Of a stretch of 64,000 bases of DNA, positions 2,440 to 51,669 are shown in pieces. The stretch is from a candidate division FCPU426 bacterium. GTDB taxonomy: Bacteria; Oederibacteriota; Muellerivitia; Muellerivitales; Muellerivitaceae. The stretch covers positions 832,001 through 896,000 of the forward strand of contig CAVRAL010000004.1 in the NCBI GenBank assembly GCA_963719085.1, given 5' to 3'. Positions within the stretch are counted from its first letter, which is position 1; each line of letters begins with the position of its first letter. The notes beneath the pieces were generated by a model. It was not told the origin of the DNA. It saw nothing but the letters and a program-made list of their open reading frames with translations, and ran no database searches. The position numbers and the translations under genes are program-made.

Positions 2440-5400
2440 ATGAAACGATTAAGTCAAAAAGGTTTCAGCGTGGTGGAATTGGCCATCGCGGTCCTGATCA
2501 TGGGCGTGATGGTGGGAACCATCATGGGAGCCCGCACCTTCATGGCCAAGCAGACCCAAACCAATGCCGACAAGGCTTTCGCCACGGAAAAAGCCATCCA
2601 AATGTTTGAGGAGTTAAAGGCCTTGGCCAGCAGCAGTCAGCAGGGGATCGAGGTTTTGGACTCCTATACCAGCTCCAACTATGACCCGGTTTTGACGACC
2701 GATATCAATGTGGACGCCCCGACCACCGGCGTGGCCAACCCCTTGGATCCGCTGAGCCAGAACAAGGCCTATAGGGGTGGATGGCGTTTTGTGCGCAAGG
2801 TCCTCGTCCAAAATACGGGGGACGATTATACCCGGGTTGTTTATGTGTGGGTTTACGGAGCCATGGGCAATAGTTATACGTCCACCTCTAATTTGCCCCT
2901 TTTGGCCCAAGTGACCGGCATTGTGAGGACGAATAATTCGGTTCAAAGCCCGGCCCAAGTGTTGGATGTTTACCTGCTGGCTGTCCAAAACGTCCAGGGT
3001 TGGTGGTCCCAGGTGGATTCGCTTGAGAGCACCTATACCCAAATCATTAAAGACTTGCAGGACGTCAACAATAGCAGCATTTATATCAGGCCCCATTACA
3101 TCACCCGGCTTTCCTATGGCCGTGATCCCTACTACGCCCCCTATGTCAATGTGAGCCAAAATACGGTGAGCGATCCGGGCGCTTGGGTTTACCTCTATCC
3201 CGGTTCGGTTCCCAACGATTCCAACGTCAACCAGGAATTTTATGAGGGCGATGTGAACGGAGTGCTTCAAGCCGGCAGTTTCAATATCGACGGCACGATT
3301 TTAAACCCCTATTACTCCACCAGCGGCTCGCCCCAAACCATTAACTATTCGGTGGCCGACCAATATGACGATTCCATGCGGTACCCCGCCGAGCTGAACT
3401 TTTATAAAAGCGTGACCCAGGCCGCCGCCACCCAGTGCAACCAGACTTCCCTGGGGGTCACTGAAATCAGCGAACGGATGCTGCTGGATGGGATGAATAG
3501 CACGCCCCAATCCTTCGCCAACGCGCTCATTGTGAACCTGCACGGTGAAATGCTGCCCATGCCATCCATGCGTAATTATTCGGACGCGGCCAAGGATCCG
3601 GGCAACGTGATTTACGGCCATTCCGCGGTGACCCTAAACGGCGTTCCGGTAAGCGTGGCGGCTAAGGACGCGCGCGTGGTCACCCATCCGGAGCTTCTTT
3701 ATTATCCGACCACAGTTGTGAACGCCTCGGTGACCGTGCGGCTGCGCGTATACGCTTATTACGACGGACTGGATAGCTGCGCGGTCACGGGAACCGGCGG
3801 CGTGACCAACGTCAAGACCGGGGATCCCGAATTGCCGGCCATCAGCGTTTTTCTGCCGAACTATTACCTGCCTTACACCAGCGCTTCGACGGGGATGGCC
3901 CTCACGGACGTGAGCGGAAACTCCGCTGTGACTTATAAAGATATTGCCGTGACCTATTTGAGTACCGGAGCGAGCGCCGCGACTTTTGTTTCTTCGCTCA
4001 GTACCGACCCGGTGACCGCCGTGGTCTCCAACCCAACGACCCAAACCACCCTCATCACGCTTTATAACACCCGTCTGCGTTGCCCTTCCGGGCTTAACAA
4101 CACCGGCTTAAACCCCCTGAATCAACTCTACGGGTTGGAATATATCCCTTGCAGCGCGGATGTCACGGCACCGGTGACCACCCTGGCCAATCCGATTACC
4201 TTCACCAACCAGGACCTGTCCAGCACCACCGCCAACGTCCCCAAAAATACCGCCCGTTGGATCTTGCAGTTGAACTCCGTTCCCACGACCCTCTCCACTA
4301 CCGGCAATTGGCAGCCTCCGACCACGGGGAACCAGCCCCTTGTCATTGAAACCCGTATCGGCGCCGGCGTCACCACTTCGTCGGCTGGCGCGTCGTTTTC
4401 GGCGCTTCAGTCGGCGGGCGGCACGATTACGGGAACGACAATTGTAGTGAATGATGTTCCCACCAACGTATCCCAAACTTATGCCTGGCTGGGAACGGTG
4501 CCCCCGCCCTATACCGAACGGTTCCAATACACCGGTGATCCGCGGGATTGTCCTTACTTAGACGTGAAGGTGGGCGGACCGCAGGTATCCGGATTGGTGA
4601 CCATTGGGCCCTGCAGCTACAATTGGTGGTTCAAGGACATCACGAACGGCTCCACGGGTGTGGATGGTTACCTGGGCTTCCTCAATACGACGAACGCTTG
4701 GGCGGTCACGTCAGGGGGCCAAGCCCCCATCGCGATGAATGAGGACGTCCCCCGGTATCTTCAAACCCTCCGCAATGGCCTTTTGGCGACCACCTCGATT
4801 TGGAGCACGATCAACGGTTGGACCAATTACTACATGGGGTTCGGCGGCGAAATCGGTTATGACCAATCGCCTTTTTCCAACAGTGTCAGCTACAACGGTA
4901 CGCCTTGGTCCACCACGAAGACCGCCACCACCCGCACGGTTAATGAGATCGTCACCGAAAGTTGGGCCGGGGCTTCCTTTAAAACCTACAAGCGCATTCC
5001 CGCTAACGTGACCAACGCCGCCGGAGTCAAAACGGACATGTGGTACGCCAAGCCTTGGCTGGGCGAGCTTTATCCTGACAGCCAATTCGGCAGCTTCTGG
5101 TACACCTATGGAAACCTTCCCACGGCGGGAAGCACCCTGGTTGCCTCGTCCTTGAATCCGGTGACCTTTTACCGGGAAGACTCGGCGAATTTTAATAATA
5201 ACGTGTCGACTTACACCACGACCCAAGGTTTCATCAATGGGACCGAGTTGGGGAAATCCCCCGGCGCCTGGGGCTGCCAATCTTTCGGGGGCGGAACTCC
5301 CACCGGATTGACGAACGGCAATACCCTGGAACATGACGGAGGGGCCAATAATACCCAAACCGGAACCATCCTGAGCCTGGGGACAACCTGTTTCAGTATT

Positions 5401-47652: not shown

Positions 47653-48591
47653 GTGAAAACCCAAAAGCAATCCTATCCCTTCAGCGTTTGGCTGGCGCTG
47701 GCCTCGGTTTACCTGATCTGGGGATCGACTTATTTGGCCATCCGCTTCGCGGTGGACAGCATCCCCCCTTATTTCATGGCGGGGACCCGCTTTCTTATTT
47801 CGGGCGCCGTTCTTTACGCCTGCGTCCGGTTCTTCGGCGCCGCCCGTCCCACGATGGTCCATTGGCGCTCCACGGCGGTTATTGGCTTCCTGCTCATCAC
47901 GCTGGCCAATGGCGCGGTTTCTTGGGCCGAGCAAAAAGTTCCCTCGGGCATCGCCTGCCTTTTGGTGGCCACGGTTCCTTTGTGGATGGTCTTGCTCAAT
48001 TGGCTGTGGAAAAAAAACGAGCGGCCGGGGATTTTGCTCAGCGCGGGATTGGCGATGGGGTTTTTAGGGACGGCCTGGCTGGCGTTTTTTTGCGGCGGGG
48101 TTTCACAAACCTTCGCCGCCGCCGGCGTGGACGCCGCGCGGCCTTGGCGGGTTATGGCCTTGGTGGGCTCCTCGGTCATTTGGGCGGCCGGCTCTTTAAC
48201 CGCCAGGTCGCTGACCTTGCCGAAGTCCGGCCTGCTTTCGGCGGCCATGGAAATGATTTGGGGCGGGTTGTTTCAATTGGCGCTCTCAGGCCTTTTGGGG
48301 GAATGGAGCCAAGTTGATTTCCACCGCTTCACGCCTTCTTCCGAATGGTCCTGGCTTTACCTGACCTTGATTGGGTCTTTGGTCGGGTTTACCTCTTATA
48401 TTTGGGTCCTGCAAAAGTCCACCCCCGCGCTGGCCTCGACCTACGCTTTCGTGAATCCGGTGATCGCGGTGCTGTTGGGATGGCTTTTGGCCGGCGAGGC
48501 CGTGACCCTGCCGGTCTTCGCCGCCGCGGGGCTCATTGTGGCGGGCGTGGTGTTGATTACGCTGGCACCGCGAGGTAAGAAAAAGACTTAA
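47653..48591 (+). CDS. EamA/DMT transporter (YedA-like)
   Basis: Motifs VYLIWGSTYLAIR and TYAFVNPVIAV. Confidence 0.9.
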   Translation: MKTQKQSYPFSVWLALASVYLIWGSTYLAIRFAVDSIPPYFMAGTRFLISGAVLYACVRFFGAARPTMVHWRSTAVIGFLLITLANGAVSWAEQKVPSGIACLLVATVPLWMVLLNWLWKKNERPGILLSAGLAMGFLGTAWLAFFCGGVSQTFAAAGVDAARPWRVMALVGSSVIWAAGSLTARSLTLPKSGLLSAAMEMIWGGLFQLALSGLLGEWSQVDFHRFTPSSEWSWLYLTLIGSLVGFTSYIWVLQKSTPALASTYAFVNPVIAVLLGWLLAGEAVTLPVFAAAGLIVAGVVLITLAPRGKKKT

Positions 48592-48606
48592 AAGCAGACC
48601 TCATTT

Positions 48607-48680
48607 ACAATGATGGACGCAGATTCAATAAAGTCTGAATTTACGATTTTACATCGGCGTGTATCTGCGCGCGTCATTGT
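48607..48680. repeat. REP-like palindrome (GGACGCAGAT family)
   Basis: ACAATGATGGACGCAGAT ... ATCTGCGCGCGTCATTGT arms. Confidence 0.6.
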
Positions 48681-48709
48681 TCCAATGATTTTTGTTAAAG
48701 GAGTTGACC

Positions 48710-49168
48710 ATGCTCGATTATTTCAAACGCCTCTTTCAATACAATGCCTGGGCGCAGGAGCGGATTTTGGCGGCGCTGGAAAAGATTGATCCCGCGTCCC
48801 TGGACGAAAAAGCCGTTAAGATCGCGGGCCATATCCTTTTGGCCAGCCGCATGTGGCTGAACCGGCTCTTAGGGAAACCCAATATCGACATGTCCCAGGT
48901 TTTAACCCTGGCCCAATGCCGCGCGCTTTTTGAGGAACTCAAGCCCGAATGGAAAGCCTATTTGGAGGGTCTCCGCGAAAACAGCTTAAGTGGAAAAACC
49001 GCTTACCAAACCACCCAAGGCAAGAGCTATGAGAATGTCCTGTCCGATGTGCTGGCCCATTTGGTGAACCATTCCACCTATCACCGGGGCCAGGTCGCCA
49101 CATTGATCAAAAAGTCGGGCGGAGAAGTGCCTTTCACCGATTTCATCGCTTTTGTGAGGCAGCCATAG
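48710..49168 (+). CDS. DinB family protein
   Basis: Motifs YNAWA, GHI...WL.R and HLVNHSTYHRGQ. AAGGAG RBS. Confidence 0.88.
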   Translation: MLDYFKRLFQYNAWAQERILAALEKIDPASLDEKAVKIAGHILLASRMWLNRLLGKPNIDMSQVLTLAQCRALFEELKPEWKAYLEGLRENSLSGKTAYQTTQGKSYENVLSDVLAHLVNHSTYHRGQVATLIKKSGGEVPFTDFIAFVRQP

Positions 49169-49209
49169 GTTGTCGAAAGGACAATCCTATATAAAGAATA
49201 TATTTAACT

Positions 49210-49246
49210 CCCTCTCCCTTGAGGGGAGAGGGTTGGGGCGAGGGTG
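49210..49246. repeat. REP-like element (CCCTCTCCC...GGGAGAGGG family)
   Basis: Hairpin plus GGGGCGAGGG tail, with siblings at 52561 and 53636. Confidence 0.7.
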
Positions 49247-49380
49247 AATCCGGCTAAGAGGGAGCGGGTCTTTGTTTTATGCCTGTTTTGCCAAGGTTTA
49301 GCGTTCGGATTTTTGTATCGGTTGCCTGGGGCCTGCGTTAAAATAGGGCTACCGGATGAATTGCCCCTGTTTTAGGGGCC

Positions 49381-49826
49381 CGGGGCTCGTCAAGGGGCGA
49401 ATAGGCCGGTTTAGTCAGCCTTTAAAGGGGATGACTTAAGGCCGGTGGATTCCTAACTTGATAGGCAGAGATGGTTCTTTTAAAAGATGTCGCCACGAGG
49501 CCCATGCCGCTGATCTGACAATCACCGGGTCTTAAGGGAAGGCGATGACCAACCGTTGACCCTCTTTTGAGAAAAAACAACCTCAAGGGAAGCTAAGAAA
49601 CATCCAGAGCCGCTTTTCTGGACGGTTTCGAAGCTTGTGCCTGGAGCAGGCTCAAAAGACCCCAGTCAACGTTGTGATAGACTTTTAAAAGGGAAGGATT
49701 CCAAAAGGCCTAGGATCTTCGTGAGGTTTCACGGGACCCTGGGGATATTACTTACCCCTATTGGGAGGACGGTTCCACCCGCGCGCATCATCAACCCTTT
49801 GCCGCCGGTGTCGCTCTTCGACCCGA
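49381..49826 (+). ncRNA. OLE-like large structured RNA (shortened variant)
   Basis: Ordered motifs TAGTCAG, GATGACTT, CGGTGGATTCC, TTTAAAAG, TTAAGGGAAG, CCGTTGAC, TCAAGGG, CCTGGAGCAG, TTAAAAGGGAAGGATT, CTAGG and GGACGG match the OLE consensus as recalled. Many helices are visible. The ends are approximate. Confidence 0.75.
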
Positions 49827-49860
49827 TTACAAAAAATTAACCCAATGAGGTGTAGTCGTT

Positions 49861-50817
49861 ATGTTACAAGTTGAAAACAAAGTCACCCCCCTGGTGGTTC
49901 CGTCGGCGACGACAAAGACCGCCAAAGCCATGTGGCGCAAGTTCACCCACGACGAGCAGATCGACTGGGGCGGCAGCATCGCGTTTTTCGGCGTGCACGT
50001 GATCGGGATCTGCGCGATTTTCACCGGCATCAGCTGGGCCGCCGTCGCCATGTGTTTCTTCATGTATTACATCCGCATGTTCGCCATCACGGGTGTTTAC
50101 CACCGTTACTTCTCCCACCGCACCTACAAGACCAGCCGGGTATTCCAGTTTATGCTGGCCTTCCTGGGCTGTTCCTGCGGCCAACAGGGCCCGCTTTGGT
50201 GGGCCGCCCATCACCGCCATCACCATAAGTACTCGGACACGGAAGAGGATGTGCACTCCCCCGGCCTTCGCGGCCTTTGGTGGGCCCACCTGGGTTGGAT
50301 CCTTTGCAAAAAGTACGCCCCGACCAAGGAAGAAAACGTGAAGGACTTGACCAAGTATCCGGAACTGATGTGGATCAACAAGTACCACGGGATCGCGCCT
50401 TTTCTTTTGGCCGTCGGCATCTTTTTCTTCGGCGCGTTTTTGCAAAAGGTCGCTCCCGGTCTTCACACCAACGGCCTCCAGATGATCGCTTGGGGGTTTT
50501 TCCTCAGCACCACCCTTCTTTATCACGGCACCTTCTGCATCAATTCGCTGGCCCACATTTTGGGCAAGAAGCGCTTTGAGACGGGGGATATGAGCAAAAA
50601 CAGCTTCATCCTTTCCATGATCACCATGGGAGAAGGCTGGCACAACAACCACCACCGCTATCCCTACTCGGAACGCCAAGGCATCTATTGGTGGGAGATC
50701 GACATGTCCCACTATGTGCTGACGGTTTTGTCCTGGTTCGGGCTGGTGTGGGACATCAAACTGCATCCTGAGGAAATTTACCAGGAAGCCAAAGGCCGCA
50801 AGGAAGTCGCGGCTTAA
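49861..50817 (+). CDS. Delta-9-type acyl-CoA/acyl-lipid desaturase
   Basis: His boxes HRYFSH, HRHHH and GEGWHNNHH. Confidence 0.92.
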   Translation: MLQVENKVTPLVVPSATTKTAKAMWRKFTHDEQIDWGGSIAFFGVHVIGICAIFTGISWAAVAMCFFMYYIRMFAITGVYHRYFSHRTYKTSRVFQFMLAFLGCSCGQQGPLWWAAHHRHHHKYSDTEEDVHSPGLRGLWWAHLGWILCKKYAPTKEENVKDLTKYPELMWINKYHGIAPFLLAVGIFFFGAFLQKVAPGLHTNGLQMIAWGFFLSTTLLYHGTFCINSLAHILGKKRFETGDMSKNSFILSMITMGEGWHNNHHRYPYSERQGIYWWEIDMSHYVLTVLSWFGLVWDIKLHPEEIYQEAKGRKEVAA

Positions 50818-50838
50818 GTTTCTAAAAGGTTTCTGATT

Positions 50839-50877
50839 AAAAAAATAGAGGGGATCTATGATCCCCTCTATTTTTTT
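50839..50877. terminator. Bidirectional intrinsic terminator
   Basis: A-tract, ATAGAGGGGATC / GATCCCCTCTAT hairpin, then a T-tract. Confidence 0.85.
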
Positions 50878-50915
50878 GTCCCGGGCCCGTTCGAGAAGCA
50901 AAAAAACGGCTTTGG

Positions 50916-51044
50916 AACCACGGATGAACACGGATGCACACAGATAAAGCTTAAACAAATCCAAAGGGTTCAAAGTTTTTAATATCCCCCACGGATTTGA
51001 GATTATCCCTATCCATCTGTGTGTATCTGTGTCCATCTGTGGTT
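50916..51044. repeat. REP-like palindrome (CACGGAT/ATCTGTG family)
   Basis: AACCACGGATGAACACGGATGCACACAGAT ... ATCTGTGTGTATCTGTGTCCATCTGTGGTT. Confidence 0.75.
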
Positions 51045-51129
51045 AATTAGGTTTTGTCTTGCTTGACAGCCGCTCCGCCCTCTTTTAACTTGAGACCCGT
51101 TTCAAACCCATTCCCCATCAGGAGGCCGC

Positions 51130-51669
51130 ATGCCCGAGGAAATTGAAGTCCCCACTGAGCATTTGCATGAAGCGATGGAAGAAGGCGCGGAAGAATCGAA
51201 AGAAAAATGGATCTTGGGCGTGGCCTTAAGCTCCGCCCTTTTAGCCGGCTTCGCGGCCATAGCGGCCCTGTCCGCCGGGCATAACGCCAACGAGGCCATG
51301 CTGGACCAGATCAAGGCCTCCGATCAATGGAACTATTACCAGGCCAAGGGCATCAAATCCATGGTTCTGGAATCCAAACTGGAGCTCTTGAAAGCCCAGC
51401 ACCACGCGGTTTCCAAGGATGACACGGACAAGGTGGCCCAGTACAAGGACGACCAGGAAAAAATCAGCGACGAAGCTAAGGAAGACGAGGAATCCTCCGA
51501 GTCGCACCTGAAGCACCACGAGAACCTGGCCTTCAGCGTGACCTTTTTCCAAGTGGCCATCGCGGTAGGCGCCATTTCCGCCCTGGCCCGCCGGCGCGCC
51601 TTTTGGTTTGTCAGCTTAGGCTTCGGAGTGGTGGGAATTATATTTCTCTCGATGGGATTCTGGGGTTAA
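51130..51669 (+). CDS. DUF4337 family protein
   Basis: Motif ASDQWNYYQAKGIK, with TM helices at both ends. Confidence 0.85.
   Translation: MPEEIEVPTEHLHEAMEEGAEESKEKWILGVALSSALLAGFAAIAALSAGHNANEAMLDQIKASDQWNYYQAKGIKSMVLESKLELLKAQHHAVSKDDTDKVAQYKDDQEKISDEAKEDEESSESHLKHHENLAFSVTFFQVAIAVGAISALARRRAFWFVSLGFGVVGIIFLSMGFWG

Follow-up and report, generated by a model that had tools for sequence, protein, structure and literature searches.

The cspA-type cold-shock 5' untranslated region (UTR), ROSE, and fourU are structured 5' UTRs that set the stability or the translation of cold-relevant genes. In cyanobacteria, desaturase transcripts are the most cold-induced, a behavior that has been attributed to temperature-dependent mRNA stability and for which an analogy to RNA thermometers has been drawn, according to the available portion of PMC3468840. 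Our search of the literature found no RNA motif associated with desaturases; the main texts of the RNA-discovery papers that it listed did not contain the phrase “fatty acid desaturase,” and their supplements may list motifs by neighboring gene. A different kind of comparison is offered by OLE RNA. OLE mutants are described as sensitive to cold and alcohol, and the OLE ribonucleoprotein (RNP) as membrane associated. In the available portion of a gene-association study of OLE (PMC11332333), Bacillota hold 2,822 of the 2,846 OLE RNAs detected, the protein partners of the RNA are OapA (CNNM-like), OapB, and OapC, and the word “desaturase” occurs 0 times.

The locus considered here lies in a 64,000-nucleotide stretch of DNA (the window) from the genome of a candidate division FCPU426 bacterium (G000). 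A first-pass annotation of the window had proposed that an “OLE-like” RNA and a fatty-acid desaturase gene form one transcription unit. A gap of 692 nt separates a DinB-family gene (48692-49168) from the desaturase gene, and it holds no listed plus-strand open reading frame (ORF) of at least 50 amino acids before 49637. Within this gap, judging from sequence comparison, positions 49290 to 49757 are an undescribed, lineage-restricted noncoding element of about 470 nt without an Rfam family. Four distinct copies of the element are compared throughout: those of the window, of a second genome (G004), and of the metagenome loci L054 and L055. The features of the window locus are as follows, with helices numbered as in the predicted consensus fold described below.

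49290-49345, plus strand: 5' block with the invariant TAAAAT, at which conservation sets in in 4/4 copies
49339-49344, plus strand: TAAAAT hexamer, located by sequence match
49352-49436, plus strand: predicted 5' hairpin domain (helices 4 to 7), with two-sided changes at 2, 2, and 1 pairs of helices 5, 6, and 7
49440-49710, plus strand: predicted central domain of the RNAalifold consensus, closed by long-range helices 8, 9, and 11 (49440-49486 with 49682-49710)
49556-49594, plus strand: invariant 39-nt block, predicted hairpin 16 with an A-rich 10-nt loop, identical in all four copies
49712-49757, plus strand: predicted 3' hairpins, helices 20 and 21, with which conservation in the four-copy alignment ends
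49758-49846, plus strand: variable, unconserved spacer, by alignment about 60 to 70 nt longer in the window than in G004 and L054
49847-49852, plus strand: Shine-Dalgarno (SD) sequence GAGGTG, 8 nt 5' of the ATG at 49861 and invariant in 4/4 copies
49861-50817, plus strand: gene for a membrane fatty-acid desaturase of 318 amino acids (PF00487, His boxes, similarity to 4ymk)
50839-50877, plus strand: intrinsic terminator, a perfect 18-bp inverted repeat (50839-50856 and 50860-50877) followed by a T run

An exact 21-nt search pattern taken from the invariant 39-nt block, which as an exact pattern misses diverged copies, matched one species-genome record (G004) and three metagenome loci. One of these three metagenome loci is identical to G004 across the 658 nt compared, and the five loci therefore represent four distinct copies. 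G004, which belongs to another genus of the same family, is 75% identical to window positions 49272-49699 over 428 nt, and a 318-amino-acid desaturase again follows. Aligned to one another, the four copies become conserved abruptly near 49290 and remain so to about 49757; the 5' flank is unalignable. The repeated motif AAGGGAAG, which has three occurrences within about 160 nt versus four on the whole plus strand of the window, was considered as a protein-binding site and dropped, two of the three sites varying in L054 or L055.

Across six locus pairs, identity within the element ranges from 67 to 86%, compared with 26 to 52% in the next intergenic region (desaturase to DUF4337 gene). In the pair formed by the window and G004, the element averages 75% identity, with 30-nt blocks at 87 to 93%, whereas the fourfold-degenerate sites of the two desaturase genes are identical at 78 of 124 positions (63%; chance, 44%). 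Indels in the four-copy alignment do not come in multiples of three, and there is no ORF with a start and a stop common to all four copies. Taken together, these comparisons indicate that the element is noncoding and under purifying selection. A leader peptide or other small ORF within the element was rejected as a candidate, none being conserved in the four copies.

By similarity, the product encoded at 49861-50817 is an SCD1-type membrane fatty-acid desaturase, probably delta-9 in regiospecificity. It matches PF00487 (E 1.6e-19; 71 bits, with a cutoff of 29.7 bits) and the solved acyl-CoA desaturase 1 (4ymk; E 2e-30), carries three His boxes (HRYFSH, HHRHHH, and HNNHH), and scores 89 bits with the NCBIfam DesA-family model, under the 400-bit cutoff of that model. 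The ORF, its GAGG ribosome-binding site, and its ATG at 49861 are present just as the first-pass annotation had them. An orthologue of this desaturase is present in 26 of 31 family genomes. G004 also holds a second, partial desaturase copy (G004:C174:4289-4939), 80% identical to the window protein and truncated by the end of the contig; the element-linked desaturase in that genome may thus be one of two paralogues.

Unrelated genes downstream of homologous RNAs had been named as an outcome that would speak against a joint unit. What we found in all four distinct copies (5/5 loci) is the element directly 5' of a desaturase gene, the desaturases being 88 to 100% identical in amino acid sequence. 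The upstream neighbor varies: the window and L055 have EamA-DinB there, G004 an unrelated ORF of 402 amino acids, and L054 other ORFs. A DUF4337 gene lies 3' of the desaturase gene at all element-bearing loci. In the oriented copy of L054, the DUF4337 gene (about 3537-4063) aligns as two segments abutting at a single position, which points to a frameshift or a sequencing error in the metagenome contig. Considered for gain or loss of the element as a module, the same-genus genome G001 (an 82%-complete assembly) gave no DUF4337 match and a DinB match of only 39%.

The distribution of the element is narrow. BLAST located it in 2 of 31 family genomes, and covariance models of its 3' half (R1) and 5' half (R3) each gave strong matches in 2 of 99 phylum genomes; it is present as a single copy per genome. 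R1 gave three extra matches (16 to 18 bits; per-genome E values of 0.01 to 0.02), no more than chance would produce across 99 genomes; one of them lies far from the desaturase gene of its genome and another in a genome without a desaturase match. When desaturase orthologue loci were searched by nhmmer --max with two- and four-sequence profiles, the element was found only in G000 and G004. This orthologue set comprised 30 loci, 29 of them usable (the gene in L041 is cut at the contig start) and three others with less than 900 nt of flank. The element is absent from 27 of the 29 usable family loci and is therefore no general requirement of the desaturase gene.

At 7 of these 29 loci, representing five genera, a different conserved noncoding block of about 85 nt, here called type B, lies 174 to 245 nt 5' of the desaturase gene.

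L033:1221-1320, type B block
L025:1193-1292, type B block
L020:1233-1332, type B block
L019:1111-1210, minus strand, type B block
L023:1258-1357, type B block
L024:2574-2673, minus strand, type B block
L032:1270-1369, type B block

The type B block occurs in one copy per genome and has no Rfam match at E <= 0.1. Covariation in its proposed junction-plus-hairpin fold was not significant, its 2 pairs being equalled in 267 of 500 shuffles. The block resembles the window element in bacterial family, associated gene, upstream position, and single copy per genome, but it is much shorter and has no detectable similarity to it. As these alignments have it, the upstream elements of the desaturase gene differ between subclades, and each is conserved.

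From the four copies of the window element, RNAalifold predicts a fold of 127 pairs, with 96% of cells paired. Sixteen of the 127 pairs are changed on both sides, compared with a shuffled mean of 8.6 (16 was reached in 1 of 500 shuffles) and 0 to 3 in six slid controls, the fold having been scored on the same four sequences that were used to derive it and these falling into two subclades, with few independent two-sided events. The two-sided changes are located in helices 3, 5, 6, 7, 12, 14, 17, 19, and 20; helices 12, 14, 17 (49597-49628), and 19 have 1, 1, 3, and 1, and helix 20 (49712-49740), with 4 pairs changed on both sides, has the most of any helix. Save for the 3-bp helix 3, all of these helices lie downstream of 49352, after TAAAAT. 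The central domain encloses hairpins 12/14, 16, 17, 18, and 19, and the loop of helix 21 is invariant across the four copies. The single-sequence fold of the window copy has a z score of -2.71. G-U is the commonest form of 14 of the 127 pairs, for which the opposite strand would give A-C mismatches, and under the predicted fold these pairs point to an RNA of the plus strand.

Other parts of the fold are less well determined, and covariation in the element, as modeled, is partial. Helix 2 (49297-49312 with 49328-49342), which contains TAAAAT and is G-U rich, never varies on both sides; in the model it is without covariation support and unproven. The long-range helices 8, 9, and 11 are nearly invariant, and thus compatible with the predicted fold but unproven. 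Two mutually complementary 10-nt palindromes, about 205 nt apart, pair in helix 11, where two copies carry an A-to-G change that destroys the palindrome in the DNA and retains a G-U pair.

The first-pass annotation had read TAAAAT as a -10-like box. The hexamer is indeed at 49339, but its 45 matches in the window, with 42 +/- 6 expected, put it at chance level, and no -35 partner lies 16 to 18 nt from it; a pattern scan of 48500-51300 returned 0 sigma-70-like sites. With TAAAAT as a -10 box, the start of transcription would fall near 49351, where helix 4 has its foot (49352, about 8 nt past the hexamer), and the leader would be about 510 nt long. Of two possible identities for the block at 49290-49345, one is the unit's promoter/operator region and the other an unproven first helix of the RNA.

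The repeat at 50839-50877 (dG -31.5 kcal/mol; z -6.7) was not equalled in stability by any of 200 shuffles, and strong terminators follow the desaturase gene in 3/3 loci checked (the window, L055, and L052), with 14-bp repeats in L055 and L052. In G004, a terminator-like site lies just 5' of the element. Both earlier statements on termination, a strong terminator at this position and none between RNA and gene, were borne out: a pattern scan of the plus strand from 49169 to 49860 found no terminator-like site, and scans of the window and the homologous loci found neither a conserved terminator nor a sigma-70-like promoter between element and gene. The spacing of about 35 nt that had been given between RNA and ribosome-binding site has to be revised, the distance from the last conserved hairpin to the SD being about 90 nt in the window, through an unconserved insertion, versus about 25 to 30 nt in G004 and L054. 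The notion of one transcription unit finds computational support in the adjacency and shared orientation of element and gene in 4/4 copies and in the lack of a conserved terminator between them. These arrangements suggest a monocistronic mRNA with a long leader, in which leader and desaturase gene would be a self-contained unit bounded by the end of the upstream gene and the terminator at 50839-50877.

The OLE-like label given to the RNA was not sustained. No Rfam family reached its gathering score in the 64-kb window, and a permissive scan of 49100-49950 (E <= 10) gave five chance-level matches, none of them to OLE or to a large bacterial RNA. Permissive scans of L052, L054, and L055 (E <= 5) likewise returned no OLE and nothing consistent inside the element. 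Across the whole genome, the best match of RF01071 was 9 bits on 14 nt elsewhere (cutoff, 50), in a search whose 14 control genomes were also without OLE and so supplied no positive control. LpxC is encoded in the genome (308 bits), and among the control genomes only the Gram-negative ones matched this family; the host is therefore taken to be a lipopolysaccharide-bearing diderm, and this assignment, made from gene content, argues against a typical Gram-positive host. Pfam scans of the neighboring genes in the window and three loci found EamA, DinB, FA_desaturase, DUF4337, and DoxX and no CNNM/OapA-like domain.

We consider it extremely improbable that the element belongs to the OLE RNA family as a divergent member and forms a membrane RNP. 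The parallel on which such a reading would draw, a large structured RNA beside a membrane-related gene, is superficial and found no support from any tool. Against it stand the absence of RF01071 from the gap, the window, the genome, and three homologous loci at the thresholds used, neighboring genes scanned without a CNNM/OapA-like member, and an LpxC-encoding host versus the Bacillota that hold 2,822/2,846 OLE RNAs in the available text of PMC11332333. The element and OLE RNA are alike in being large structured bacterial noncoding RNAs, and differ in length (about 410 to 470 nt versus about 600 nt), in neighbor (desaturase versus oapA), and in host (LpxC-encoding diderm versus Bacillota). Since the OLE premise is unsupported, the claim that this locus would be a direct genetic clue to OLE function falls with it.

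We favor, with somewhat more confidence than doubt, a lineage-restricted structured 5' leader that would be co-transcribed with the desaturase gene and would control the desaturase posttranscriptionally, perhaps via cold-dependent mRNA stability; co-transcription, start site, signal, and mechanism are what we infer. The observed basis of this model is conservation, purifying selection, strand, synteny, the lack of a coding frame, and partial covariation. Two roles had been suggested for the RNA, a cis-regulatory leader or an RNP with the desaturase as partner. The former is the better reading. Conserved noncoding structure on the sense strand before the same gene in all homologues, the generic mark of a cis-acting leader, is present 5' of the desaturase gene in 4/4 copies. 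The leader would fold into a 5' hairpin domain, a large multihairpin central domain, and 3' hairpins and would act on desaturase output after transcription start. The likeliest route would run from temperature or membrane state to mRNA lifetime or translatability, as proposed for the cyanobacterial des mRNAs.

No expression platform was evident as a conserved SD/AUG-masking pairing in the four homologues or as an intrinsic terminator in the leader. A simple SD-masking thermometer was tried as a candidate and was not supported: at both 37°C and 15°C, each of the four homologues has its own predicted pairing partners for the SD and AUG, and therefore no concrete switch can be named. Nor did 49100-49950 match any Rfam thermometer family at E <= 10.

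How the favored leader compares with described systems can be put as follows. Like the cspA-type thermosensor, ROSE, and fourU, it would be a long structured 5' UTR before a cold-relevant gene; unlike them, it is without an Rfam thermometer match and without conserved SD/AUG masking. The cspA leader is about one third the length of the window element. With the cyanobacterial desA, desB, and desC mRNAs, the element shares the kind of target gene, and RNA-structure-based posttranscriptional temperature control has been proposed there (available portion of PMC3468840). That portion of the text describes no defined conserved RNA motif, and there is no sequence relation between the two.

The same observations could be accommodated by an independent noncoding RNA gene, whether trans-acting, a scaffold, or an RNP component, that stands 5' of the desaturase gene by chance and perhaps reads through into it, with the desaturase as a conceivable partner. 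A length of about 410 to 470 nt, a multidomain fold, and an invariant 39-nt hairpin are more than most cis-leaders need, and the failure to find an SD-sequestering switch and the roughly 90 nt of unconserved sequence that precede the SD in the window would suit such a gene. However, no copy has a terminator or a conserved 3'-end signal after the element, only about 25 to 30 nt separate it from the SD in G004 and L054, and the element was found once per genome and only next to the desaturase gene, to which 4/4 distinct copies are adjacent. We consider an independent RNA unlikely on this balance. Slightly more doubtful is a purely DNA-level control region (promoter, operator, or activator sites), whose conservation would reflect protein binding. 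Bacterial desaturases are often under transcriptional control (DesK/DesR and DesT), the 5' block at 49290-49345 is invariant without covariation and includes TAAAAT, and the 10-bp palindrome has two copies about 205 nt apart.

Near-continuous conservation over about 470 bp nonetheless far exceeds the needs of a promoter plus operator. Moreover, 16 pairs stay paired through two-sided changes, and the variable segments fall on predicted stems. The A-to-G change of two copies breaks the first palindrome and keeps the G-U pair of the RNA model, and for this reason the modeled helix 11 favors RNA over DNA recognition. Control at the level of DNA may hold for the first 55 nt only.

The leader model also has a more ambitious form, which we regard as improbable, in which sensing falls to the leader itself. 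On this view it would represent a new class of large cis-acting RNA (core of about 400 nt) that adjusts desaturase output to temperature or to a signal of membrane or lipid origin, with the two palindromes and the invariant A-rich-loop hairpin as a conformational or dimerization switch. If this were true, it would be the first defined RNA element dedicated to membrane-fluidity homeostasis.

The supposed link between OLE and lipid desaturation is absent here, and follow-up on a false lead is thereby spared. What remains is a well-delimited RNA element, under purifying selection, tied to an SCD-type desaturase in an uncultivated lineage. Should the element prove regulatory, it would provide a defined sequence handle on the posttranscriptional control of a bacterial desaturase, control of a kind that has so far been deduced in cyanobacteria mainly from mRNA stability data. 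Its present weight is limited by a narrow distribution, 2 of 99 phylum genomes and two further distinct metagenome copies.

Several repeats were encountered around the element. Between the DinB gene and the element, positions 49208-49247 hold a GC-rich hairpin repeat (about 40 nt) with many dispersed copies: among 41 related genomes searched, 24 have it, with up to 17 listed matches in a single genome. It is missing from the corresponding position in three homologous loci. A long palindromic stretch just 5' of the element in L055 (L055:1650-1781), which matches a plant microRNA hairpin model at 37 to 39 bits on both strands (cutoff, 135 bits), probably represents a further hairpin repeat of the dispersed kind. 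An imperfect inverted repeat lies 3' of the desaturase terminator and 5' of the DUF4337 gene in the window; its 50-nt arms (50896-50945 and 51015-51064) are 74% complementary and 69 nt apart.
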